Shown here: positions 9,201 to 27,190 of the stretch, piece by piece
How positions within the stretch are numbered: position 1 is the stretch's first letter
Layout: every line of letters begins with the position of its first letter
Program-made: the position numbers and the translations under genes
The notes under the pieces: model-generated
Seen by the model: only the letters and a program-made list of their open reading frames with translations
Database searches by the model: none
Told to the model about the DNA's origin: nothing
NCBI GenBank assembly: GCA_049472195.1
Contig: JBLIRG010000026.1
Coordinates: forward strand, 1-40,010
Source: Thermoplasmatota archaeon
Lineage (GTDB): Archaea; Thermoplasmatota; Penumbrarchaeia; Penumbrarchaeales; Penumbrarchaeaceae
Direction: 5' to 3'
Length of the DNA: 40,010 nucleotides

Positions 9201-10738
9201 GTCCATTGGGATATCTTGCCTCCGATATCGAGATAGTAGGAACCGGGCCCCGTAATCCACGGAAGAACATCCTTTCTGAGTATGCCGTCCCCTGTCAGGT
9301 TCTGACCCACGCCGCCCTGTTCCGATCCCCTCATGGAATATATCTCGGGGTACGGATCGGGGTCCGGGATGCCGTCCTTGTTGGTCCCGAGCCAGTGCTG
9401 TTCTCCCGTGGAATCCCAGAAGCGTCCTTTTATCCACAGCCTCTCATCGACCTCGAAACCCCTGTCCTCGTAGCTGTAATCGAAGAACAGTTCCACGGAA
9501 TTTGCAGCTTCCAGATCGGACGCGTCTATGTCAAAGGAAACACCGTAGGCCCCGGATATATCCACGCCGCCGCTGTTGGATGGCGATACGCCGCCCATCT
9601 CGATCTGAAGCATTCGCACCCTGTTGACGGCCCGGTTCGTGCCTATTGCGTTTCCGGAAGCCTGATTGTACCTCACCGAGTCATACAGGGTATCGTTATC
9701 GTAGATGTGAGCGTCGGACGTGTCCCACCCATCGTCTCCCGCACCCCACCCAAATGTATTCCCGGAGGTTTCTATCGAGGAGGTGAACCTCACCACCCCG
9801 TCGGGGTCCGCTCCCGGAATATCGATGGGTTTGTAGGTGATGTTGAGATAGAATATCCTGATCATCCCGTTCTCCGGTGAGGATATCACCAGGGCTTCCC
9901 GCCCCTCGTTCGCGATGTCCACCGCTTCGAGCTCCGTGCCGTCGGTTATCGCAGCGTCGGGAAGGTTCATCATAACACCGTATTCGGGGAGGCTCCCGCC
10001 GAAGTATACATCCATTGAAGGTTCGTGGGTCCCATCCTGTCCCGATAGAATGATGAGATCGTCCTCGTCATCCCCGGAGAACTCCCCCTCCTTCATCGCA
10101 ATTCCGTATCGGTAGGCGTCATCACCCGTCAGGATATAATCGGCGGCGGTGGGATAGAATTTCTGTCCCTTGTACGCTCCCCTGATCTTTGAAGATCCGA
10201 AGATCAGAACCTTGCCCGCATCGTCATCCGCACCCGGGCAGCCAACAACAATATCCCGCCAGTTATCCTGATCGTAATCCCAGGTCAGGAACGAATATCC
10301 GAGCTGGAATCCGGCATCACCGAGTATGGATACGTCCGCCGATTTCGGATCCAGGTCCTTAAGGTAATTATGATCCCTTCCGCTCTCTCCCCAGTAAATG
10401 TGCAGGGACCCGCTGTCATCCCCCCTCGAATCGTTGTACGGAAGGGCCATGATGATATCATCGCTACCCTCCTCGTCAATATCGACGACGCTCCTGATCC
10501 TCGGCATATCGTCCCGAGTGATCGAATTCGTCACGTCGTCTCCGTAGATCCGGATCGATCCGGCCTCATTTGAGAGGATGATCACGGCGGTAGAGAGGAG
10601 CAGAACGGCAACTGATATCGACAGTGCCCGCCCATCCCGAAAAACTGATGTTCTCATGTTCAACACCCCGAAGATCGCCATACGGATGCCAGCGGATGAC
10701 ATACGCATATCAGCTAGCTCAGCAAAGTTAATGATCAT
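6230..10738 (-). CDS. Giant surface protein (1502 aa) with FG-GAP/beta-propeller repeats, multiple Ig-like domains, single TM and a Lys-rich then Glu-rich cytoplasmic tail
   Basis: FG-GAP-like motifs DIDEEGSDDIIMAL, DIVVGCPGADDDAGKVLIF, DIDGDGWDDLLISDPADGKVHVF. Ig-like repeats containing FFYSRDNSTW. TM GLIAVIGIVIFILLILIVGLFFIF. Tail KKAKKKPIKAKKVKPAEKPRKKKKKPSIEKKADKHRKVKKPKARP then EEELEEFEELEEFEDWEE. Start could be 10738 (leaderless, TATA about 25-30 nt upstream) or the Met at 10657 directly preceding the signal-like helix. Confidence 0.7.
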   Translation of the reverse strand: MIINFAELADMRMSSAGIRMAIFGVLNMRTSVFRDGRALSISVAVLLLSTAVIILSNEAGSIRIYGDDVTNSITRDDMPRIRSVVDIDEEGSDDIIMALPYNDSRGDDSGSLHIYWGESGRDHNYLKDLDPKSADVSILGDAGFQLGYSFLTWDYDQDNWRDIVVGCPGADDDAGKVLIFGSSKIRGAYKGQKFYPTAADYILTGDDAYRYGIAMKEGEFSGDDEDDLIILSGQDGTHEPSMDVYFGGSLPEYGVMMNLPDAAITDGTELEAVDIANEGREALVISSPENGMIRIFYLNITYKPIDIPGADPDGVVRFTSSIETSGNTFGWGAGDDGWDTSDAHIYDNDTLYDSVRYNQASGNAIGTNRAVNRVRMLQIEMGGVSPSNSGGVDISGAYGVSFDIDASDLEAANSVELFFDYSYEDRGFEVDERLWIKGRFWDSTGEQHWLGTNKDGIPDPDPYPEIYSMRGSEQGGVGQNLTGDGILRKDVLPWITGPGSYYLDIGGKISQWTAATEFGAMGFDNLRLTVRSVNNSFRTISGPTGLGSELHAQDIDGDGWDDLLISDPADGKVHVFSGNDSYWRNFDTIELQSSNITINGITQGSETSMARIPPTKTILTDCLAVSDPKKEAENGTGVIHVFHLPLEEGPVLISTSDEKAPQRNGLKDFGWEIVSIGDNGTEGYSDLRIMSWTGDGRLVVSDADRNMADPEIFILSPVMFQEIKGLFEIRARVFDYDGDADPADVVFLWSVNDGAAWSPFPGNGLPDRVEGDTAVKVWNTSNFENKLYTIRADVEDFQGNSVSATVRSVSVINHKPPLVTIIYPLEGFVLEGVTEVTADVSTFGGELLRKPVNFFYSRDNSTWIPLAQVDNPAGGSGTDYTVEIDTKDFADGPIWFMVNASTDFGIEGEGRHIGPVFIDNKYMPEISFITPMGTEDISGTVNISVQITDPDDDLILPAVLWIRDNLAFNSKYALLGNLSGPFHNDTYYYSWNTRDFDNGNYSLMVSVEDESFLNANVEHPAFMIVHNIYTPSVQFEGITDNEEVSGTLHLKARITDRDANFDRTYISFFYREAGGEWIRLAGATLAGDLAQITWDTRDVDDGIYDLMVEVYDLDDEYASDMISNIVVDNRYNPILEPNLPLSGSVLSGVVRLAFNISDEEFIHVDNVVFSVFSKGSWTNLTNTSILADDSGFIPWEAVTYYVDWDTEEEESDGSPRFPDARGYLVRVKVTDADGVDVSWTSKTSYEVMNGEVEVPDVDGDDGRINTGLIAVIGIVIFILLILIVGLFFIFSGERRARKGISEPLPEIGEKKPREAERPPKEPAAEEEVFSAEAMRYGEYGEPPAEVYEPPVPPEISPDDAAFLDEFMVGADIGDSGPAYGQEIQGPVFATSLPLKDEMRGAPEAAIPEWGEEEVDVDLPEGVMPARKAKKKPIKAKKVKPAEKPRKKKKKPSIEKKADKHRKVKKPKARPVEEETWEVEEWGEEEEELEEFEELEEFEDWEE

Positions 10739-10800
10739 GAATATAGATATAAATTGTCATATCCTCAATAGGGATCGGATCGAGCGCGCCGGAATGCATC

Positions 10801-12180
10801 TCAGTTGTACTCGCTCAAAAACTCCTCCACCACATCCAGACCGCCCTGCCCCTGGACGAATCCGTTGTACGGTTCCCGGGGAGTTATCTCACCTGCAATG
10901 GGGGTGAGCATCATCCTGTTAACGGCCTCCGGGTCCTGGACCTGGCCAAGAACCCATCCCAGCTTGCAGTATGCCACCTCTGGAAGCATGTTCTCGAGGG
11001 GGACGATCCCGAGGGACATCAGGTCCCTTCCCGTGTCGTAAACGAACATCTGAACGTAACCGTATAGCGTCTGGACGGTCATGTAAAGATGGATCCCTTC
11101 TTCATGCGCTCTTCTAAGTGGTTCGTACAGCGGCTTGTTCACGTGACCGAGGCCCGTCCCCGCGATCACTATCCCCTTGTAGCCGTTGTCAATCATGGAA
11201 TCGACGATATCGGGATTCATATTGGGATAGTAGTAGAGGATGGCAACCTTCTCCTCGAATTGTGGATATATCCTCACCTCCCTATCATCCCTTCTCCGCC
11301 GGTAGTCGTCCCTGAAGTAGGTGAAATTTCCGTCCTCCACCTTTCCCACCGGAATGTCTCCCAGCGTCTTGAACGTGTTGCGGTAGGAGGAGTGCATCTT
11401 CCTCACCCGCGTCCCCCGGTGGAGATAGCAGAACCTGTCCGATGTGGTCCCGAACATGCATACGAGCACCTCGGCCGCGTCTGAATATGCCGCGGTGGTT
11501 GTGGCACCGATCAGAGTTCTGGCGGCATCCGAAGACGGTCTGTCCGAGGATCTCTGGCTTCCGACCATCACTATCGGAACCGGGGATCCCTGAACCATGA
11601 AGGACAGCGTTGCCCCGGTGTAGTGCATGGTATCTGTCCCGTGGCCGATGGCGATCCCGGCGACGCCCTTCTCTATCTCCCTCTTGATGTTCTCGGCGCA
11701 AACCTTCCACTGGTGGGGTCCCATGTTCTCCGAGAAAACACCGAACAGCTTACGGGTCGTGATGTTGGCTATGTCGGCGAGTTCTGGAACCGCACCGAAC
11801 AGCTCTCCGGGAGTGAAGGCGGGGATCACCGCACCCGTCCTGTAATCGAGGCGGGACGCGATCGTTCCGCCTGTTCCGAGTATGGTCACATCCGGAAGGT
11901 CCGGATTCACGGGGAACTCCTTCTCGGGGATCCTGTAATTGGCCTTCTTCGATCCCTCGGATACGAGATTCCGGATGTTGTCGACGTGGATCCCTATGTT
12001 GTATCCGGTGATCATCTTGATGACCAGATGGGAGTCGTCCCCTGCGGACCTGGGAAGGATTATACCCTCCACCAAACCGTCCGGAGTGGTTACCCTGACT
12101 CTGTCCCAAACGAAGGCGTTCTCTCTCTGGAGCACCTCAAGGGCGGGGCCCCTGTATCCTTGATACCTGTCCTCGGTCAT
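10801..12180 (-). CDS. gatD: Glutamyl-tRNA(Gln) amidotransferase subunit D (archaeal GatD, asparaginase-like)
   Basis: 459 aa. N-terminal GatD-specific domain followed by asparaginase signature ILGTGGTIASRLDYRTGAV and a second asparaginase-type motif region. No gatE adjacent. Confidence 0.75.
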   Translation of the reverse strand: MTEDRYQGYRGPALEVLQRENAFVWDRVRVTTPDGLVEGIILPRSAGDDSHLVIKMITGYNIGIHVDNIRNLVSEGSKKANYRIPEKEFPVNPDLPDVTILGTGGTIASRLDYRTGAVIPAFTPGELFGAVPELADIANITTRKLFGVFSENMGPHQWKVCAENIKREIEKGVAGIAIGHGTDTMHYTGATLSFMVQGSPVPIVMVGSQRSSDRPSSDAARTLIGATTTAAYSDAAEVLVCMFGTTSDRFCYLHRGTRVRKMHSSYRNTFKTLGDIPVGKVEDGNFTYFRDDYRRRRDDREVRIYPQFEEKVAILYYYPNMNPDIVDSMIDNGYKGIVIAGTGLGHVNKPLYEPLRRAHEEGIHLYMTVQTLYGYVQMFVYDTGRDLMSLGIVPLENMLPEVAYCKLGWVLGQVQDPEAVNRMMLTPIAGEITPREPYNGFVQGQGGLDVVEEFLSEYN

Positions 12181-12237
12181 GTGACCACAACGTGCGGGTA
12201 GGATAACACCCTAAATAACGGTTTTCTTTCATTAGAG

Positions 12238-13527
12238 CTAGAATATCCATCCCATGATCACTATGACGATAAGCAGGGAGCCCGATCCGGCTATATCCAT
12301 GGATGCCGTCAGAAGCGGGATCACCACGTTGTCCGGGTCCAGACCGATCTTGAAAGATAGATATGCAAGATAGTATGCGGAGGCTGAGGATATGATCGAG
12401 ATGAGGGTCGCCCCAGTAAGCATGGTCAGAAGCAGGACGGGAAAGAAGGGGATCTCAACACCCGCCGAGGATCCCAGGAAAAAACCCCCGACGGCCATGG
12501 CGCTGAACACCACCATCGATATCAGCCACAGTGTGGATGTCGTGGATACGGATAGAGTGTTCGGCTTGAGTGTGAGCCTGTGGGTCCCGAGATATCCCGC
12601 GGATGTGATCCTGGATCCCAGGATCGAACCTATCGATCCTCCCTGACCGTTGAAAGCCGGGATCAGGAGGAGGAATACGGTCCCCTGGAACATCGACGAG
12701 AAGTTATTCTCCAGTATCAAACCCGATATGGAAGAGAGGATTATCGCACCCAGTGCGATCGGAAGAGCGTTCTTGATGATCGATCGGTATTCACCCCTTA
12801 TCACGATCATGGTCACGGCGGAGACAATGATCAGAAGGACCAGTGACGTATATGCTGCGGTCGCTGCTACGGGTGAGCTTAATGAAACGGTGATCCATGC
12901 GGCCAGGAAGAAGATGGGAATCGTGAGCACATCCCCTGTCGATGCAATTATCGGTGCCGAGACGTTGTCCGGGTCCCACCCCTTCCGAAACGAGATGAAC
13001 GTTATGGACAGGGATATGGCGAACATGAGGATGCCGGACAGTATGCCTCCGAGAAGGGATATCAGCAGGAGCTCGTGGAATTTTGCGATCTCCACGCCTG
13101 CTATCAATGCCATTAGCGTTCCCGCGAACGGTATCAGCGACGAGAGCACCATGAGCTGTATGCCGGACGCCATCATCTGTTGTTTGAGTTCGGAGTTTCG
13201 CCTGAACCGAGGTTCGATTGTACCGAGATGCAGTCTCGAAGACAGCCTTGCGGCCAGGGCTCCGAATGTGTTCCCCCTCAATCCGACCGTGGGGGGAAGG
13301 AGTATGAGAAGCCCCGGAACCAGAATGAGATACCGCTCGAATGTGCCGAGAAAATAGCCGGGAAAAAGATCGATCATCGCGCAGATCAGGAGGATCATCG
13401 TCGACTGGCGGAGAAGGCCCCGATCCGGTTTTATGAACTCCGAGAGTACCTTTTTAACGAATCCGACGATGGCCCTGGCTGGGGATATGGTGCCTTCTCT
13501 CTTCTGGAGACTCCCCAGGGCGGCCAA
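12238..13527 (-). CDS. MgtE-like Mg2+ channel membrane domain protein (tandem-duplicated MgtE TM domain, no CBS or N-domain)
   Basis: 429 aa, about 10 TM helices. Two copies of the MgtE pore signature (GWDPDNVSAPIIASTGDVLTIP and GLDPDNVVIPLLTASMDIAGSG). Confidence 0.6.
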   Translation of the reverse strand: MAALGSLQKREGTISPARAIVGFVKKVLSEFIKPDRGLLRQSTMILLICAMIDLFPGYFLGTFERYLILVPGLLILLPPTVGLRGNTFGALAARLSSRLHLGTIEPRFRRNSELKQQMMASGIQLMVLSSLIPFAGTLMALIAGVEIAKFHELLLISLLGGILSGILMFAISLSITFISFRKGWDPDNVSAPIIASTGDVLTIPIFFLAAWITVSLSSPVAATAAYTSLVLLIIVSAVTMIVIRGEYRSIIKNALPIALGAIILSSISGLILENNFSSMFQGTVFLLLIPAFNGQGGSIGSILGSRITSAGYLGTHRLTLKPNTLSVSTTSTLWLISMVVFSAMAVGGFFLGSSAGVEIPFFPVLLLTMLTGATLISIISSASAYYLAYLSFKIGLDPDNVVIPLLTASMDIAGSGSLLIVIVIMGWIF

Positions 13528-15538: not shown

Positions 15539-17221
15539 TTATGTACTAACTGGACCAGTGGCAACGTTCGGATGTGATAACACATCCCTGAACGCTGACA
15601 ACGATTCGTCGGTGGAATCGATATCGTATATCCACGTCTCATCGATCCCGTTCCACCAGATCGCCATCCAGATATTTGGATAATCTTCGAATAGCGATTT
15701 GAGACCTGTTTCGATCCATTCTGATTTACTCCCGCCGACCTCGTTGCATGCGAACTCGGTGATCATGAACGGCTTGGAAGAGTAACGCCTCATGTAATCA
15801 TCATAGAGATCCAAGTAGCATTCCTCGAAATCTCTCCAAACTTCGGTGGGACGGGTGATGCCGTTGTTGTAGGCTGTAAGCCCGATCCAGTCAACCATAT
15901 CATCCCCGGGATAATACAGCGGAGGAGCCTGCCATTTATAATCCGGATAGGTACGATCATGAGGATTCCATACGAATTGAACATTATCTGCCCCGATATA
16001 ATCGAATATTGTATGAATTCGAACCCATGCCATGATATACAGATCCGGATCGAGACCGTAAAACCAAGAACACCACTGGGTCCAGTCGCCGTTCATCTCG
16101 TTTGCGAATCTCAAGAAGATCGGCTCTGACAGATCCCTAAGCCCGATCGCCCACTCAACGAGATATTGATCATATTTTCCGTTGAGAATATCAAGAAGAA
16201 CTACTTGACCATCGAATTCCTCACTGTGTGAGTTCACATATGGTTGTAAGGTCAGAAGTAAGACATGTCCCTGATCGTAATGATTGTAAATGAAATCCTT
16301 TGCCTCACCGAATTGGCAGGTGAAATTGAAATAATCCATGAAGAATGGAAAATCATACAGAAGGCGGGTTTCAAGAACCTTGATTTCGTCCCAGTACTTA
16401 CTATGGGGTGCATGATAAATCCCGATTAACTTCTGATCTTCAGGGATCGATATGGTCGTCTTATCACCTTCAATGTTGATCTCGTTAACCAGAGGTTCGG
16501 GAATCTGTGATCTTTCAACATGAGCTTTCTCATCCCAGAAATCCATGGTTGATAGGGACATTTCAAGAATATATTTTAACATGGATATATTATCAGAACT
16601 ACTTTTCAGGAAGACGGTAAATAAGGTCCTCTCATCCAGTTGATAATTATATTCAAAATAGTGATTCAGATCGATATCGATCGATGATATTTTGGTCCGT
16701 CGATATTCTATTATATTGAACGTTCTCCCGCCGATCACACGATCTTCATCCGATACATGGGTAATCTCCCCGTAGCCATTTCGAATGTTCAAATTGGAAT
16801 AATCGATAAAGGTCTGGACCTCTTCAAAAGATGTATTTAACACATGCTTCATCACCGTGATCTTCATATCCGGATCCCTGAAACATAAAACAAAATCGGA
16901 ATCGGAATCGTCGATCGTCCAATATGACGGTATAGCCATCCGGTAACCGTCGATATAATTCCAGAACATATTATGTGTTGAGTTGAATGGTGTCGTCGTT
17001 ATCATAAAATGAGATTGATCTCCAATCAATCCGGAAGAATATTCGGCCATTTTCGCATTGATCATATCAAGATCAATATCTCCTGCATTTTTTCCGAGAT
17101 CATTGATATCATCTCCGGATGAAATGATCTCTACTATTACCGCATAAAATGATGAACTACTAATGGATATTAAACATATGATAGAAATCACTGGGATTCG
17201 TATCACTCTTTCATCCATCAA
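15539..17221 (-). CDS. Secreted or membrane-anchored protein with C-terminal glycoside hydrolase family 26-like (beta-mannanase-like) domain
   Basis: 560 aa. N-terminal hydrophobic signal or anchor. C-terminal half carries the GH26-like acid/base motif LRFANEMNGDWTQWCSWFYG and nucleophile motif FMITEFACNE. Gene is markedly AT-richer than its neighbours. Confidence 0.55.
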   Translation of the reverse strand: MMDERVIRIPVISIICLISISSSSFYAVIVEIISSGDDINDLGKNAGDIDLDMINAKMAEYSSGLIGDQSHFMITTTPFNSTHNMFWNYIDGYRMAIPSYWTIDDSDSDFVLCFRDPDMKITVMKHVLNTSFEEVQTFIDYSNLNIRNGYGEITHVSDEDRVIGGRTFNIIEYRRTKISSIDIDLNHYFEYNYQLDERTLFTVFLKSSSDNISMLKYILEMSLSTMDFWDEKAHVERSQIPEPLVNEINIEGDKTTISIPEDQKLIGIYHAPHSKYWDEIKVLETRLLYDFPFFMDYFNFTCQFGEAKDFIYNHYDQGHVLLLTLQPYVNSHSEEFDGQVVLLDILNGKYDQYLVEWAIGLRDLSEPIFLRFANEMNGDWTQWCSWFYGLDPDLYIMAWVRIHTIFDYIGADNVQFVWNPHDRTYPDYKWQAPPLYYPGDDMVDWIGLTAYNNGITRPTEVWRDFEECYLDLYDDYMRRYSSKPFMITEFACNEVGGSKSEWIETGLKSLFEDYPNIWMAIWWNGIDETWIYDIDSTDESLSAFRDVLSHPNVATGPVST

Positions 17222-22074: not shown

Positions 22075-22690
22075 ACAGATGCCCCCGTATATCTTGTATC
22101 ATCTCGGAAACCGTGAGTTATCCTTATGGCGAAAACATTATTTTATTCTTTCAAAATAAATGGTTGAATGGCGACTGAACTGCGATAGACGCATTTTTTC
22201 AAAAGGTTTGGCGGGGAATTAACCCCGCCGTTTTCCTCTCTTCCCTTTACTCACCCGTGGGGTGGGTCCCATAACCTCCGTTGTTCAGAGGATCGTCATA
22301 TACAATGAGGTCCGTCCTTCGGGACCGATAATGATCCGCATCATTGATCCGGATCTTCACATGGCGAATGTTCTGATATCAATTCCCTTGAAAACACTTC
22401 TTCGGCACCTCCTGGATCATTCATCAACATCCGCACATTTTCTCTCCTTTATCACCCGTTGTTTTCATTCTTCATCGTATCCTCGTTTTCCCCGTTCCAC
22501 AATTAATATTATGTTTAAATGATTATATGACTATTTTTAATGACATTAATGAACTTTTATTCTAAAATTCAATTATAAATACGGATCTTGGATCCCTTGC
22601 ATGTTTTCAAACTACAGGATCGGGGATCATAATATGATCGGGATTCCCGCGGAAATATCAGAAAAGTATATATATGGATTATGGAAAACT

Positions 22691-22889
22691 ATCGGATTTT
22701 TCAATTTAGTTATATACTCTTGATATTGATATAAAACATAGAGGCGAGGGGGCTCCCCGGAGTGCAATGGTACGGGCCTTCCGGAAAGCCCTTGAAATCC
22801 CTCTAGATAGTATAGTACACATATGGTATTAGAAGATGTCGAAAAAAAACGAGGGATTCCGCCTGAAAAACGCAAAGGAGGTGAAAATA
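22691..22889 (+). promoter_or_regulatory. Conserved roughly 200-nt upstream element, copy A: GGATTTTTCAAT box, TATA box, GTGCAATGGTACGGGCC and CTTGAAATCCC blocks, AGGAGGTGA Shine-Dalgarno
   Basis: Block-wise homologous, with conserved spacing (box to GTGCAAT 71-72 nt; GTGCAAT to ATG 124-128 nt), to copy B at 25935-26133. Confidence 0.6.
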
Positions 22890-23027
22890 ATGGAAAGGAG
22901 AACCGACAATGCATCTGACCGCGATGGAGGCATATTCTACGATTGGTTCCCAACGGAGGAGATAATTGCGCCCTCGTATCTGGTCCTCAGACTCATCAAC
23001 CTGTACTCGTTCAGGTATCCGAGATGA
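22890..23027 (+). CDS. Small ORF A (45 aa), hypothetical peptide MERRTDNASDRDGGIFYDWFPTEEIIAPSYLVLRLINLYSFRYPR
   Basis: Strong Shine-Dalgarno AGGAGGTGA 7 nt upstream. The start region (ATGGAAAGGAG vs ATGGAAGAGGA) and the C-terminal ...LYSFRYPR motif are homologous to small ORF B (…MYNCRYPRC). Confidence 0.45.
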   Translation: MERRTDNASDRDGGIFYDWFPTEEIIAPSYLVLRLINLYSFRYPR

Positions 23028-23145
23028 ACTGCAGGGAGATCTTGACAATCAAGGACAGGCGAGAACATCGGAATAAACCGAAAAAGGGGAGAATGACAGA
23101 AAAACTTATATAGGCCTGCAATAAAACTATAGGATTTCTGATAAA

Positions 23146-23179
23146 CCATATATATACTCCCCAATGATACTTCATCTGA
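23146..23179 (+). promoter_or_regulatory. Third copy of the island promoter motif (ATAGGATTTCTGATAAACCATATATATACTCC)
   Basis: Shares ATMGGATTT box plus a TATATA box about 14 nt downstream with copy A (22691-22724) and copy B (25935-25967). Confidence 0.45.
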
Positions 23180-23227
23180 GGGTGGGGGAACGGAGCGGGG
23201 ATTGAATGCGTAAAAAGCCCGAAATAA

Positions 23228-23285
23228 AACGGAAAGAAACGGGTTCCGCCCATTTCTTTCCGTTACCATTTTCAACTTATTTTCC
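23228..23285 (+). terminator. Hairpin (16-bp imperfect inverted repeat AACGGAAAGAAACGGG / CCCATTTCTTTCCGTT) followed by T-rich tract
   Basis: Stem 23228-23243 and 23249-23264, loop TTCCG, then ACCATTTTCAACTTATTTTCC. Lies about 50 nt downstream of the third promoter copy. Confidence 0.45.
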
Positions 23286-23389
23286 ATATTTGAGAATATT
23301 CTAATGAATTATCATTATTCGCGAAATATTCCGATCCCGAATGGAAAAATTATATCTATACTACTACCCATTCTAAGATCGAGGGCTGT

Positions 23390-24754
23390 ATGAAGATAGA
23401 TAGAGAATCCCAGGTAATGTACGGAGTTCACCTCCTACTCGGTGTCGATGACTACTCAAGGGGACATGACAAGCAGGAGCTTTCGAACGCACTCGGAATA
23501 TCAAGCAACACGCTCGATCTCTATCTTGCCCATCTTTCAAAGCGGGATCTGATCAACAGGAAGAAATCAAGATACCAGAAGGAGATCAGACAGATCATAA
23601 AATTGACCGAGGAGGGGGCAAAGGAGGTTCAGAAGATCGAATCGGACATCAACAAACTCCTCCTTACCAACGAGCGGCACAATATTCCCAACTGCATAAA
23701 CGTAACAGATATTCTGAGCAGGATCCCCGATCCCCTCGCGAAGATATTCTTCCTTGCGGTCTACAACAAATACAAGAGCTTCGATCTGCCGATGTTCCTG
23801 GAGACGCTGAGGATCTCCAAGCAGGATGTGAACATAATCAACCTCTTTCCGGGATCAGAGGGAAGCTATTCCGATACAGGAAGAATCCCCCTTATCGAAT
23901 CGATATTCAAAACATGTTTCTACGGGGATATCGACTGTGAAATATTGGACACCGATGTCTGGGGCGAGAAGGATATCGATGCATTTCTCGTCGTCGCCGA
24001 GGCCAGGCTCAAACAGGGAAAGCTCAAAGACGCGGAGATGATTTATGATTATATTCTGTCACCTAAACTCGAGATCACTCAGAACCAATGGTTTATAGCA
24101 CGCCTGGGAATGGTAAACATACTGCGAAGACAGGGCAAATTCGATGAAGCTTTGGAGCAGCTCGATGAGATTCACGACATGGTCGATGACAGCGTATACC
24201 AGGCCTTCATAAAGGAGAACAAAGCCTTGATCTACACCATAACCTACCAAAATCAGAAATCCATGGATATGTTCAAAAGGTCAATAGCATCATTCACCAC
24301 TCATGGCCTACCACTTATGCTTTCTATCGCATACAATAACCGCGGGACCTGTTACTTCAGGATGGAAGATTACCAGAATGCGGAGAAGGACTGGATCAAA
24401 GCGAGAAAATTCGCCAAGAAAGCACAGTCCGCTTACTGCGAGGCTGCCATCCTGTGCAATCTATCGGATACGACTGCCATGAAGGGAAAGATAGATCTTG
24501 CTGTCAAATATCTCAATAAGGCCTTCAAGATATTCAAGGAGATTCCTGATTACGAGGGAATGGCAAGTGTTTACTACAACTTCTCACTCCTTTATCTTGA
24601 GAGCGGGCAGCTTGAAAACGCATTGGAAAATTTCCGAAATTCGATTACGGTTGCAGAACCTCTTCCTTCTGATTTTGAAAAGAAAGACTGGAGAAAAACC
24701 TTCATCCAGAGGGGGAAGGACCACGGTTTCGACTCTATAGAAAATATAATATAA
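23390..24754 (+). CDS. wHTH-TPR protein (N-terminal winged helix DNA-binding domain plus C-terminal tetratricopeptide repeats)
   Basis: 454 aa. N-terminus ELSNALGISSNTLDLYLAHLSKRDLINRKKS is HTH-like. C-terminal half has multiple 34-residue TPR-like units (for example AYNNRGTCYFRMEDYQNAEKDWIKARKFAKK, LCNLSDTTAMKGKIDLAVKYLNKAFKIFKE, YYNFSLLYLESGQLENALENFRNSI). TATA-like box about 35 nt upstream. Confidence 0.6.
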   Translation: MKIDRESQVMYGVHLLLGVDDYSRGHDKQELSNALGISSNTLDLYLAHLSKRDLINRKKSRYQKEIRQIIKLTEEGAKEVQKIESDINKLLLTNERHNIPNCINVTDILSRIPDPLAKIFFLAVYNKYKSFDLPMFLETLRISKQDVNIINLFPGSEGSYSDTGRIPLIESIFKTCFYGDIDCEILDTDVWGEKDIDAFLVVAEARLKQGKLKDAEMIYDYILSPKLEITQNQWFIARLGMVNILRRQGKFDEALEQLDEIHDMVDDSVYQAFIKENKALIYTITYQNQKSMDMFKRSIASFTTHGLPLMLSIAYNNRGTCYFRMEDYQNAEKDWIKARKFAKKAQSAYCEAAILCNLSDTTAMKGKIDLAVKYLNKAFKIFKEIPDYEGMASVYYNFSLLYLESGQLENALENFRNSITVAEPLPSDFEKKDWRKTFIQRGKDHGFDSIENII

Positions 24755-24823
24755 TGATCATTATTATTCACAAATGGATTGAAATATTCAATCAATTTGA
24801 ATAAATATGTGGGGTGATGTGAT

Positions 24824-25420
24824 TTGGTAAAAAAAGCGTTAATCATCATTTCCGATGATTACCACGGAATGACCAATGGTTTCGAATTGGAAAAAGCGGA
24901 AAGGCTCAGAGATGATTTGAGAAGCAAGGGATGGATCGTTAATAGTGACGATAATTCAAATGATCAGATCGTGGTCAATAGAAATGATTTTTTAGCTCTC
25001 AGGGATTGGTTGAGGGACCACCCAAACCAGCCGGATGATGAATTTCTCGTGTATATCGCCGACCAGACCCATCTGATTGCCGGAGACGATATCAAGATAT
25101 CATTTTCGACTGGAGAGGCGAATATTGTCGATGAGATCGACTATGAATTCAAAGATCATCTTTGTGTTGAGTTCACACTCGTATTTGGGGGTCCAAAATC
25201 GGGAGGTGCCATCCATGATCAGACACATCTCGGACCAAAATGTCTTGTGATATGCTCGATGCATGAATCAGAGGATTATAATGATGATCTGTTTGATCTT
25301 CAGTACAGCCTCATGGGAGATAATTTCCTGGAGGCTGGAAGACAGGAAAGGGCCAGGCTGCTTCTTGAGAATCCTGTACAACACGTACAATTGAAGAATA
25401 GGAACAATCCGGTACCGTGA
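24824..25420 (+). CDS. Hypothetical protein (198 aa), possibly a caspase-like (peptidase C14-type) fold. Start uncertain (TTG at 24824; first ATG is Met16)
   Basis: N-terminal strand KKALIIISDDY, then helix ELEKAERLRDDLRSKGWIVN, then DEFLVYIADQTH (His position) and KCLVICSMHE (Cys position). These follow the strand/His/Cys order of caspase-like domains. Internal repeat DQTHL appears twice. Confidence 0.35.
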   Translation: MVKKALIIISDDYHGMTNGFELEKAERLRDDLRSKGWIVNSDDNSNDQIVVNRNDFLALRDWLRDHPNQPDDEFLVYIADQTHLIAGDDIKISFSTGEANIVDEIDYEFKDHLCVEFTLVFGGPKSGGAIHDQTHLGPKCLVICSMHESEDYNDDLFDLQYSLMGDNFLEAGRQERARLLLENPVQHVQLKNRNNPVP

Positions 25421-25434
25421 ACGAACATCGGCAG

Positions 25435-25740
25435 TTAATGATTTTTAATCCAGCTGCCGATGATTATTCCTTTTTCTTTTCTCAATTTATCCTTTTTTTC
25501 CTTAATATATTCGTATTCTTCTTCGTTTTTGATTTTATGGATCATCGCGTCGAGGTCCATCCTCTCTATTTTGCATACCTCGCTGTACATCGCACGAATT
25601 GCCCTGACTCTCCTCCTCCCCGCACATTTCGGCAAAGGCCTTTCCGGTCTTTCACCATCGATGTAACCGTTGTATATCTCCCTGATTATATCCTTGTTCG
25701 TTTTACCCATTTCAATTCCCTCCTGATCAAACAATATCAT
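25435..25740 (-). CDS. Hypothetical small basic protein (101 aa)
   Basis: ORF MILFDQEGIEMGKTNKDIIREIYNGYIDGERPERPLPKCAGRRRVRAIRAMYSEVCKIERMD...KEKKDKLRKEKG. TATA-like ATTTATAT about 25 nt upstream on the minus strand, so possibly leaderless. The plus-strand overlapping ORF is poly-Phe junk. Confidence 0.4.
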   Translation of the reverse strand: MILFDQEGIEMGKTNKDIIREIYNGYIDGERPERPLPKCAGRRRVRAIRAMYSEVCKIERMDLDAMIHKIKNEEEYEYIKEKKDKLRKEKGIIIGSWIKNH

Positions 25741-25934
25741 ATGAAAAAGGAAATATAAATAGATAAAGGATTGTGTTCTTCAGGAAATATAATCTTCATT
25801 TAGTTCAAATAATGTTAAAATATTCTCATATTTATACATTCATGGCAGGTCGAATATTCAATTAGGATAGGATAAATAATGCATGATATGGGAAAAAGCG
25901 GAGAGTAAACCTTATATATGCCTTTCCGGAAAAT

Positions 25935-26133
25935 ATAGGATTTTTCAATCCCCTTATATATCCTGATAGCCGATATTCAATTGCAGCGAGGAGGAATGCC
26001 GACCGGTGCAATATGGTACGGGCCCGGGCGGCGATCCTTTGAAATCCCGAAAGATCCGAACCGGATCGTCATGATCCCGGGGGGGATCGGTGGGGATTTC
26101 TTCCGCTAGAAAATACCGAAAGGGGGTGTAGTG
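25935..26133 (+). promoter_or_regulatory. Conserved roughly 200-nt upstream element, copy B (ATAGGATTTTTCAAT box, TTATATAT, GTGCAATATGGTACGGGCC, CTTTGAAATCCC, GGGGGTG Shine-Dalgarno)
   Basis: Homologous to copy A with conserved block order and spacing. Confidence 0.6.
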
Positions 26134-26226
26134 ATGGAAGAGGAAAATAAACTGAGGTATTGGGAGATTGTCCCTATCTGGTTCCGCCTTGCCAGCATGT
26201 ATAACTGCAGATATCCGAGGTGCTGA
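26134..26226 (+). CDS. Small ORF B (30 aa), hypothetical peptide MEEENKLRYWEIVPIWFRLASMYNCRYPRC
   Basis: Homologous to small ORF A at both DNA and peptide level (…Y(S/N)(F/C)RYPR). Followed by its own terminator hairpin. Confidence 0.45.
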   Translation: MEEENKLRYWEIVPIWFRLASMYNCRYPRC

Positions 26227-26260
26227 GAGGTGAGTAAATTTGGGGGTCCGGCCGCGTGTG

Positions 26261-26287
26261 GGGGTCCGGACCCCTGTCCTTTTTTTT
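26261..26287 (+). terminator. Intrinsic-terminator-like hairpin GGGGTCCGGACCCC followed by TGTCC then T7
   Basis: Perfect palindromic GC-rich stem followed by a T-run, 35 nt after the stop of small ORF B. Confidence 0.55.
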
Positions 26288-26359
26288 GAAAAGTTTTAAA
26301 TCGATACGGATCGATAGGTAACCGAACCATACTGGCTCGATTTCGAAGGTGAATCCGTA

Positions 26360-27190
26360 ATGAGATCGCTCGCATTAATCTCCATACTGATATCCGCAGT
26401 TGTTCTGACCTTCCCGGCCGCGGCTGCGGGGATCGGGGGGGAGGAGGATATCCTTCAGGAGGAGGGTGTGGTATACACCGAGACCAAGAACCTGTCCCGC
26501 CCCAACAGGATCGCGGTGATCGAGGTGGAGGGTTACGGAACGATCAGGATCGAGCTTTACGATAACATGACCCCTATAACAACCCAGAACTTCGTGGACC
26601 TCGCGAACCGGGGATTCTACGACGGGATCAAGTTCCACCGGTGCATAGACGATTTCGTGGCCCAGACCGGAGATCCGAACACGAAGAACATGAATCCCTA
26701 CGACGACGGCTCTGGTGGATCCGGGACCACGATACCTCTTGAGATCAATTACAACGCCACCCATATTGACGGGGCGGTCGGAATGGCCAGATCTACCGAA
26801 CCGGATTCCGCCTCGTCCCAGTTCTACATCTGCGACGGGCCCCAGCACGGACTGGATGACGAGGTGAGGATGGACAGCAGCGGATCCCACGGATACGCGG
26901 TTTTCGGCGTGGTCGTGGCCGGATTGGACATTGCAAAGAGGATCGCAGGGACGGAGACCTACGGCAATACAAGGCCGCTTCTGAAGGATCACCCGGTCGA
27001 CGACATAGTGATGACCCGCGTGACCATCGAGGATGGGGATTGGTCGAACTTCACCGGACCGGACAAATCAGAGGACGGGGATTCCTCCGGATCAAAATCG
27101 GACGCCCCGGCTCCGGGATTGATCCTTGCTGCGGGAACCGTTCTCCTTATCCTGGTTGTCTCGGGCGGGAGAAGAAAGCGCCGTCCCTAA
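26360..27190 (+). CDS. Secreted cyclophilin-type peptidyl-prolyl cis-trans isomerase with C-terminal Pro-Gly-hydrophobic-basic sorting or anchor segment
   Basis: Signal peptide MRSLALISILISAVVLTFPAAAAG. Cyclophilin motifs GTIRIELYDNMTPITTQNFVDLA, GFYDGIKFHRCIDDFVAQTGDP, GAVGMAR. C-terminus PAPGLILAAGTVLLILVVSGGRRKRRP. Confidence 0.85.
   Translation: MRSLALISILISAVVLTFPAAAAGIGGEEDILQEEGVVYTETKNLSRPNRIAVIEVEGYGTIRIELYDNMTPITTQNFVDLANRGFYDGIKFHRCIDDFVAQTGDPNTKNMNPYDDGSGGSGTTIPLEINYNATHIDGAVGMARSTEPDSASSQFYICDGPQHGLDDEVRMDSSGSHGYAVFGVVVAGLDIAKRIAGTETYGNTRPLLKDHPVDDIVMTRVTIEDGDWSNFTGPDKSEDGDSSGSKSDAPAPGLILAAGTVLLILVVSGGRRKRRP

Follow-up and report, generated by a model that had tools for sequence, protein, structure and literature searches.

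The question raised by this locus is what kind of genetic element is formed by two homologous modules, each consisting of a conserved upstream element and a tiny open reading frame (ORF), that lie in direct orientation on the archaeal contig JBLIRG010000026.1 (assembly GCA_049472195.1). We call them modules A and B; the window is the whole stretch of DNA analysed, which is the complete 40,010-nt NCBI contig of a Thermoplasmatota metagenome-assembled genome (MAG), and coordinates given without a locus name refer to it. An initial annotation, made from the letters of the window, had described the two modules as flanking an AT-rich island, and had read the upstream element either as a structured leader RNA of the riboswitch or attenuator kind or as a multi-site promoter. 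We find that the locus is real, conserved and unannotated, and that it brings together, in a lineage-specific regulator cassette, a small-protein family and a structured leader that are both new and a promoter element that its units share. The two modules are homologous, the cassette recurs, the peptides carry a coding signature, hairpin 1 of the leader is under selection for stability, and one promoter box is common to three units. We are highly confident in the description of the genes and the cassette as a whole. The fuller reading, in which co-regulated small-protein genes in a conserved cassette feed back on a regulator containing tetratricopeptide repeats (TPR), we hold at a probability of about 0.5.

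The two module regions were aligned pairwise after reading positions 22300-26700 and listing their ORFs. All of the blocks named in the initial annotation are present, in the same order in A and B: ATMGGATTTTTCAAT (22691-22705 in A, 25935-25949 in B), TTATATA (22710-22716 and 25954-25961), GCGAGGRGG and CYTTGAAATCCC (both copies), GTGCAAT(AT)GGTACGGGCC (22762-22778 and 26006-26024), and a Shine-Dalgarno (SD) sequence followed by ATGGAA. The ORFs are likewise as described, encoding 45 aa that end in ...LYSFRYPR (A, 22890-23027) and 30 aa that end in ...MYNCRYPRC (B, 26134-26226), and copy B closes with the expected terminator, a hairpin followed by T8 (26242-26287). Exact occurrences of GGTACGGGCC and GGATTTTTCAAT are found at copies A and B only, and a BLASTN search of copy A (22667-23027) against the whole window returns copy B (25912-26287) at 69% identity over 139 nt (E 2.6e-5). 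The blocks of the earlier module definition therefore stand, but its start has to be moved, as the similarity already sets in at a first TATA-like box, ~25 nt ahead of the stated start. The components of the two modules are as follows.

22667-22716 (+): module A promoter, with TATA-like box 1 at 22667-22675, inter-TATA box AAAACTATCGGATTTTTCAAT at 22685-22705 and TATA box 2 at 22710-22716.
22739-22889 (+): module A predicted leader, with hairpin 1 at 22746-22793 (loop block 22762-22778), domain 2 in which AAUCCCUC (22796-22803) pairs with GAGGGAUU (22851-22858), and SD sequence GGAGGTGA at 22877-22884.
22890-23027 (+): small ORF A, 45 aa, MERRTDNASDRDGGIFYDWFPTEEIIAPSYLVLRLINLYSFRYPR, listed at NCBI as hypothetical protein ACMUIG_04635.
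25912-25961 (+): module B promoter, with TATA-like box 1 at 25912-25920, inter-TATA box GAAAATATAGGATTTTTCAAT at 25929-25949 and TATA box 2 at 25954-25961.
25984-26133 (+): module B predicted leader, with hairpin 1 at 25988-26040 (loop block 26006-26024), domain 2 in which GAAAUCCC (26041-26048) pairs with GGGAUUUC (26093-26100), and SD sequence GGGGGTG at 26122-26128.
26134-26226 (+): small ORF B, 30 aa, MEEENKLRYWEIVPIWFRLASMYNCRYPRC.
26242-26287 (+): module B terminator, a GC-rich hairpin and then T8.

Each module is an autonomous small-protein gene, made up of a double-TATA promoter, a folded leader of ~150 nt, a strong ribosome-binding site and an ORF of 30 or 45 codons, to which B adds a hairpin/oligo-U terminator. 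The leader starts (near 22739 and 25984) were placed from the usual archaeal spacing after TATA box 2, giving predicted 5' untranslated regions (UTRs) of ~150 nt.

Whether the ORFs encode proteins that matter in themselves was addressed by collecting relatives. Contigs carrying relatives of the 454-aa protein encoded between the modules were fetched and scanned in six frames, by regular expression and then with a peptide hidden Markov model (HMM). The conserved small-protein family that the initial annotation had proposed to look for exists, with 16 genes in whole or partial cassettes from four lineages. ORF A (E 3e-12) and ORF B (E 8.7e-17) match the family HMM and were both among the sequences used to build it; non-seed members match it as well (D_L091, 1.5e-14; the upstream peptide of L087, 8.7e-12), and the members from loci L004, L087 and L091 (two each), L088, L089, L090 and L092 score between 2.5e-9 and 2.4e-19. 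The peptides are 21-45 aa long and have in common a 17-residue C-terminal core, W[YF]RL[IA]N.YP.R[WY]PRC, preceded by N-termini that vary in length and sequence. In a set of 1.84 billion representative proteins the family accounts for only three clusters, the small proteins match no Pfam or NCBIfam model, and a literature search found no mention of the peptide motif.

The substitution patterns carry the coding signature. The ratio of non-synonymous to synonymous differences (pN/pS) lies at 0.07-0.58 in most ortholog pairs (0.42 for ORF A); ORF B differs from its ortholog in locus L083 at 3 of 93 nt, and 17 of the 27 differences between the L088 and L089 ORFs fall at third positions. A conserved C-terminal core, a reading frame that is kept and a position beside the gene for the winged-helix and TPR protein together mark the ORFs as a new family, and on these patterns they are a conserved small protein under purifying selection, not a throw-away leader peptide. 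The minimal member, MAMDVYTLRLVNMYPLRWPRC (21 aa; L092 4894-5151, GCA_030600725.1, JAUVLN010000055.1), is just the conserved core, which by itself seems to be sufficient.

In the full arrangement of the cassette, a small ORF with leader is followed by the winged-helix and TPR protein (~454 aa), a ~195-aa protein, and a second small ORF with leader and terminator. The genes between the modules, and the forms that the cassette takes elsewhere, are as follows.

23390-24754 (+): winged-helix and TPR protein, 454 aa, the putative regulator and peptide receptor.
24824-25420 (+): 198-aa protein, always downstream of the TPR gene, with homologs at the same position in L083, L086, L087, L088, L089, L091, L004 and L092.
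25435-25740 (-): lysine-rich ORF of 101 aa, lying after the 198-aa gene and before module B, with only 23% identity to the L083 ORF at this place; it may not be a gene.
L004, L087, L091: the order of the window, namely small ORF, TPR gene, ~195-aa gene and small ORF with terminator.
L088, L089: a 44-aa ORF that has an IYDW motif in common with ORF A, oriented divergently from a tandem pair of TPR genes, after which comes the ~195-aa gene.
L092: the 21-aa peptide MAMDVYTLRLVNMYPLRWPRC, after a ~200-aa gene.

A peptide search returned one relative, the ORF A ortholog P0002 (87% identical), on three Logan contigs (L083-L085) with the gene order of the window, running from a DUF362 gene through ORF A, the winged-helix and TPR gene, the ~195-aa gene and copy B (uncalled) to a cyclophilin gene. 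The island is ~75.6% identical between the window and L083, copy B 85.7%, hairpin 1 of copy A 100%, and the 454-aa protein 83%. The status of the minus-strand 101-aa ORF as a gene is doubtful. In the L087 locus, the complete cassette is immediately preceded by another TPR paralog (454 aa) and its 343-aa partner (10001-12399); L086, L088 and L089 also contain two tandem TPR paralogs, and the receptor gene duplicates repeatedly. Upstream of module A, the 585-nt intergenic region that separates it from the DUF362 gene (22075-22660) is ~75% conserved with L083 and contains a hairpin with a T-run at 22209-22240 (+) and a probably spurious 86-aa ORF.

This recurrence bears on how the AT-rich stretch between the modules is to be read. 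AT-richness itself is confirmed, with a GC content of 40-44% between the copies against ~55% in the flanks (0.43 for the cassette against 0.54 for the remaining window), but the framing as an island is not, since the modules belong to a conserved four-part gene cassette that is AT-rich relative to its flanks in the window lineage and not in L004 or L087. The initial annotation had allowed that its interpretation would fail if related genomes held no further copies and the region were not transcribed, or if the similarity were only a recent local duplication lacking conserved structure; further copies were found, and the duplication is old. A and B are ancient paralogs in a vertically inherited cassette, neither a recent duplication nor att-like repeats. 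A second AT-rich stretch (16001-17000, GC 0.405), in or beside a 560-aa minus-strand ORF (15539-17221), is apparently unrelated.

The same observations leave very little room for the idea that these are loci resembling type I toxin-antitoxin systems, or direct repeats at the borders of a mobile island that was inserted or duplicated recently, which we regard as extremely improbable. It is true that the ORFs are small and have long folded 5' UTRs, and that the direct repeats of the window bracket an AT-rich stretch. A type I system, however, combines a hydrophobic membrane peptide with a complementary RNA, and the peptides here are neither hydrophobic nor membrane-spanning (no member has a hydrophobic stretch), and the search for a conserved antisense promoter or a complementary RNA came up empty. 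Identity between the copies is no more than 69%, and each is separately conserved in its orthologs. A mobile-element origin was rejected: no tRNA, no integrase and no att-like exact repeat was found in the window, the TPR family has no relatives in viral contigs or plasmids, and the AT-richness is lineage-specific.

With the modules established as genes, we turn to what they have in common upstream. Aligning the module A promoter with those of B, of the L083 orthologs and of a third unit, C, revealed a common layout in A, B and C: a first TATA-like box, a AAAAYTATMGGATTTYT box, a second TATA ~41 nt downstream of the first, and a GAGG-rich start. The AAAAYTATMGGATTTYT box has three sites in the window (22685 in A, 23123 in C and 25929 in B) against 0.48 expected, a count that was reached in 1 of 100 shuffles, and there are no others in the window. 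The suggestion of a multi-site promoter was therefore partly right, in that a double-TATA promoter with an inter-TATA box is present in three copies, and the picture of two modules, while real, has to make room for a third promoter copy that lacks an ORF.

23105-23290 (+): unit C, with the third double-TATA promoter and its box AAAACTATAGGATTTCT (23105-23157), an RNA of ~100 nt, a hairpin at 23230-23262 and T-runs.

The promoter is also a shared element, because unit C, which lacks an ORF of the peptide family, also has the double-TATA promoter and the box. Its RNA (GAGGGTGGGGG...GGGGATTGAATGCG..., with a 13-bp hairpin) is near-invariant relative to L083 from the box to the terminator, against ~75% identity in the surrounding island, and in the terminator hairpin the loop has changed and the stem has been kept. 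Unit C is probably a small non-coding RNA or a degenerate module. We considered it as an antisense regulator of A and B and set this aside, as its duplex energies with the A or B mRNAs are no better than those of shuffled controls. Loci L004 and L087 have a different inter-TATA box, and the pattern describing it, CCTGA..TGGAC.TA.A.CTT, was derived from the same sites at which it is found, at both modules and nowhere else in those loci. A box that is common to paralogs within a genome and differs between clades has the look of an operator co-evolving with a DNA-binding protein encoded in the cassette. One further feature of the promoter region is that the upstream box GGATTTTTCAA (22694-22704) is an imperfect inverted complement of TTGAAATCC (22792-22800), which stands just behind hairpin 1 and ~90 nt away, in both copies; as other clades do not conserve this pairing, the complementarity may be coincidental or a DNA-level feature. 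A long-range pairing of the upstream box GGAUUUUUCAA with UUGAAAUCC was considered and, on direct reading, rejected as it is not conserved in other clades.

Between TATA box 2 and the start codon, the ~150 nt of each module probably form a structured RNA leader, as the initial annotation had suspected, and we consider this a good deal likelier than not. All four leaders of the window clade fold alike, into two parts. Hairpin 1 is long and imperfect, and the conserved block GUGCAAU(AU)GGUACGGGC forms its apical loop. In the second domain, an 8-bp closing helix (AAUCCCUC/GAGGGAUU in A, GAAAUCCC/GGGAUUUC in B) encloses an interior that is AU-rich in A and GC-rich in B; the 150-nt fold of module B has a z-score of -2.81. 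Leader A is identical to its L083 ortholog at a fraction of 0.85 of positions, against 0.70-0.72 in the flanks, and between orthologs generally leader identity (0.81-0.92) equals or exceeds that of the ORF, against 0.66-0.82 in the flanks.

The stems of hairpin 1 differ among A, B and the B ortholog yet stay complementary (UGCCG/CGGCG becoming CUGCA/UGCAG, and G-C becoming A-U in the inner stem), so that the same loop is carried on different stems. As MAFFT with RNAalifold misaligned the stems of the window copies, each sequence was folded singly and substitutions were simulated. Window B and its ortholog differ at 12 stem positions and the hairpin stays at -23 kcal/mol, whereas 12 substitutions placed at random give -14.5 +/- 3.6 and are as stable in only 0.9-1.8% of trials; for the 17 differences between downstream and upstream paralogs of the sister clades, 0-2.6% of random placements are as stable. 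In an alignment of seven sister-clade hairpin-1 domains, standard pairs make up 85.5% at the proposed positions against 36-56% in slid controls, six pairs have changed on both sides (0-2 in controls), and the covariation score is 0.18 (at most 0.12 in controls). The test for compensatory changes that had been proposed thus supports hairpin 1, over a small sample of seven distinct sister-clade and three distinct window-clade sequences. With a covariance model of the sister clades, every sister-clade copy gives 58-92 bits in the sense direction, and antisense scores stay at 21 bits or below; this strand asymmetry, together with the G-U pairs, speaks for an RNA rather than a DNA palindrome. The leaders probably represent a structured RNA that has not been catalogued so far. 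We also considered whether the UUGRA bulge could be a K-turn (L7Ae site) and dropped this on direct reading, as the sequence lacks the fit to a G.A/A.G tandem that a K-turn requires.

A leader as conserved as its ORF invites the proposal that the RNA is the main product, acting in trans, with unit C as a third such RNA and the ORFs secondary (a dual-function or purely non-coding RNA). Unit C, which keeps the promoter, a leader-like 5' part and the terminator without an ORF and is near-invariant relative to L083, fits this proposal, but four lineages conserve the peptide core at the protein level, with changes that are synonymous, L092 retains the peptide behind a short leader, and unit C forms no convincing duplex with A or B, as reported above. 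We regard this explanation as improbable.

The riboswitch or attenuator form of the leader proposal makes a stronger demand, namely that the leader senses a ligand or physical cue and gates translation or termination, the tiny ORF being only a leader peptide. The leader is indeed long, conserved and folded, and on reading the folds the segment after hairpin 1 can pair alternatively with the 5' end or with a downstream segment. The initial annotation could assign the blocks to no RNA family, and Rfam gave no match at gathering thresholds in the window; with E raised to 10, the stretch 22500-26400 returned chance-level matches only, and the L087 and L089 modules returned none. In partition-function calculations on the window copies, the SD sequence has an unpaired probability of 0.41-0.60 and the AUG of 0.41-0.98, not lower than in controls with a shuffled upstream region, and on this prediction SD sequestration was discarded as a general mechanism for these copies. 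An expression platform that hides the SD sequence or start is predicted only in the clade of L004, L087 and L091, where the AUG is buried in an 8-bp helix, UUCCAUCG/CGAUGGAA (unpaired probability 0.00-0.02 in most leaders and 0.44 in that of the upstream L004 module; RNAalifold agrees), and the SD sequence is unpaired with a probability of 0.03-0.16. In the downstream-type modules of L087 (15200-15260) and L004 (15260-15330, minus strand), the start and second codon, CGAUGGAA, can form perfect pairs with UUCCAUCG ~40 nt upstream and the SD sequence can pair with a UUUCC or CUUCC tract, a predicted lock that is absent from the window copies.

Because Rfam has no match and the SD sequence and AUG of the window copies are predicted to be open, a riboswitch or attenuator is not supported for the window, and that part of the initial annotation falls. 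Further observations point the same way: no terminator lies between leader and ORF, the sequence of the apical loop differs between clades, unlike a ligand pocket, the ORF codes for a conserved protein with its own terminator behind it, and the L092 peptide has a leader of only ~45 nt without hairpin 1. On balance we consider this explanation unlikely. Compared with translation-controlling 5' leaders in general (riboswitches, RNA thermometers, protein-bound leaders), the elements described here are alike in being long, conserved and folded 5' UTRs directly upstream of a strong SD sequence, with a buried start in one clade, and unlike in their lack of an Rfam match, of predicted sequestration in the window copies and of any ligand or terminator platform that we could find, as well as in their clade-specific loops. 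The window-type leader sequence is confined to the window lineage, because exact-pattern scans for GCAAT N0-3 GGTACGGG N10-22 TTGAAATCC found no match in GTDB genomes and one chance match each, within coding sequence, in metagenome and viral contigs.

What follows the ORFs is relevant to a different cis-acting possibility, that the peptides are ribosome-arrest peptides whose C-terminal 17 residues, with a Pro near the stop, stall the ribosome and set the fate of the transcript. Conservation is limited to the C-terminal ~17 residues, a stretch about as long as the exit tunnel, with variable N-termini before them; R[WY]PR(C) stands directly at the stop codon, and a hairpin terminator lies 12-35 nt past the stop in downstream-type copies. 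Hairpins with U-runs equivalent to the module B terminator follow the downstream-type ORF in L087 and L004, with weaker or no U-runs in L083, L090 and L091. The genes beyond the terminator, however, differ between genomes (cyclophilin, peptidase M29, SIS) and, in the two loci that were read directly, have their own TATA-like sequences in front of them, and the constant partner of the peptide is the TPR protein and not a downstream gene. We therefore think arrest peptides very unlikely.

It is this constant partner to which the preferred reading, of co-regulated small-protein genes that feed back on a regulator, is attached. The 454-aa protein matches Pfam TPR_12 (7.9e-25) and, weakly, HTH_34, and has ~35 relatives at 37-48% identity. 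An AlphaFold2 (AF2) model built with 30 homologs (mean predicted confidence, pLDDT, of 80) comprises a winged helix-turn-helix (HTH) domain at residues 1-130, a disordered linker at 139-193 and a TPR superhelix at 196-454 (~260 residues). Its N-terminus matches domains of the winged-helix/MarR type (HTH_34, HVO_A0261_N and MarR PDB chains). Profile comparison of the TPR part reaches LGN (2e-9), NprR (1e-6) and RapJ (9e-5), the last two on the TPR stretch only, and Foldseek retrieves LGN/Pins complexes, Rap-Phr complexes (4gyo, 8rtc, 4i9c) and APC subunits, with TM-scores of 0.3-0.5. On this modelling, the TPR fold is compatible with peptide binding and not diagnostic of any family. LGN/Pins-type and other TPR superhelices give the best profile and Foldseek matches and bind ligands of ~20-40 residues, comparable to the small proteins of 21-45 aa described here; they are eukaryotic scaffolds without a DNA-binding domain, and the likeness is one of repeat type and not orthology. 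For the 198-aa protein, a single-sequence AF2 model was uninformative (pLDDT 36), and a caspase-like His/Cys pattern noticed in it was not borne out by the family alignment.

The matches to NprR and Rap raise the possibility of an archaeal counterpart of RRNPP quorum sensing, in which propeptides would be exported, trimmed to a C-terminal signal, re-imported and bound by an HTH-TPR receptor that switches the promoters carrying the box. The RRNPP pairs (Rap-Phr, NprR-NprX, PlcR-PapR, Rgg-SHP, PrgX and AimR-AimP) resemble the present locus in several respects. A DNA-binding domain joined to a C-terminal TPR domain of the peptide-binding kind (TPR_12, superhelix 196-454) is encoded beside an ORF of 20-45 codons of which the C-terminal part is functional, such a small gene with a conserved C-terminus being adjacent in every locus examined; the receptor and peptide promoters have a putative operator in common, and the TPR parts are weakly similar in sequence and fold. 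In addition, signal-less 'leaderless communication peptides' are known from Firmicutes (cited in the reference list of PMC12700828).

Other features set the locus apart. The HTH domain is a MarR-like winged helix and not of the XRE type. Neither an export signal nor a short hydrophobic peptide is present, the N-termini being acidic or hydrophilic (MEEENK..., MESIQGGKDE...) without a signal sequence, for which the 21-aa member leaves no room, and no exporter, Opp or peptidase gene was seen in the cassette. The C-terminal core is maintained from lineage to lineage and does not diversify into pherotypes. The receptor here lies between two paralogous peptide genes, a ~195-aa partner is always present, and there are folded leaders of ~150 nt. 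The host, finally, is an archaeon: according to PMC12700828 and PMC10075063, RRNPP systems are described only from Bacillota and their mobile elements, and no peptide/TPR signalling system from an archaeon turned up in a literature search. By analogy, the locus may function in the manner of a peptide/TPR-receptor pair without being a member of the RRNPP family, and an archaeal quorum-sensing system of the full RRNPP kind is in our judgement a poor prospect. Arbitrium (aimR-aimP-aimX of SPbeta-like phages) provides a similar comparison: it also joins an HTH-TPR receptor to a gene for a small peptide and to a short transcript under regulation, to which unit C could correspond, but it is phage-borne with a peptide that is secreted and processed, and nothing viral is present here.

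The mechanism that would best accommodate these findings is a feedback loop within the cassette. The winged-helix and TPR protein would bind the shared box and co-regulate units A, C and B, and the 17-residue C-terminal core of the small proteins would be the ligand held in the TPR superhelix, closing the loop; the pair would thus be receptor-like and probably intracellular. The folded leader may add a layer of post-transcriptional control, affecting mRNA stability or serving as a platform for a protein that reads the conserved apical loop, and is probably not a metabolite switch.

Several findings weigh against this reading, which we place at about even. The TPR matches are generic, with LGN scoring above the RRNPP proteins and TM-scores of 0.3-0.5, and the ~195-aa protein (198 aa in the window) that always accompanies the receptor has no match in Pfam, NCBIfam, PADLOC or a PDB profile search. 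Some pairs of downstream-type ORFs have a pN/pS of ~1, on very few changes. The long leader is absent from the L092 lineage and is therefore not essential to the role of the peptide. The window clade offers three distinct leader sequences, in which the stem changes come with register shifts. Lastly, the sister-clade covariance model gives leader A 9.1 bits (E 8) and does not find leader B; because it does not significantly recognise the window leaders, their homology across clades rests on position, architecture and short motifs.

A bolder extension would be a peptide-based signalling circuit in Archaea, in which the core is sensed by the TPR domain of a DNA-binding receptor, possibly between cells, and the leaders form a second, RNA-level gate on signal production; we think this a long shot. 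Little has been charted of either small proteins or long structured 5' UTRs in archaea, the family described here is missed by most gene callers, and its gene-order tie to a DNA-binding TPR protein yields a testable hypothesis of a peptide-receptor loop in Thermoplasmatota, for which the pairs of leader paralogs are natural compensatory-mutation experiments. If the link between peptide and TPR protein is true, it would widen the range of a signalling architecture so far believed to be limited to Gram-positive bacteria and their phages, and if the signalling circuit is true as well, RRNPP-like receptor/peptide systems would for the first time be known from beyond Bacillota and their mobile elements. 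Should this not hold, the locus would still be a clean case for improving the annotation of small ORFs and leaders in archaeal MAGs.

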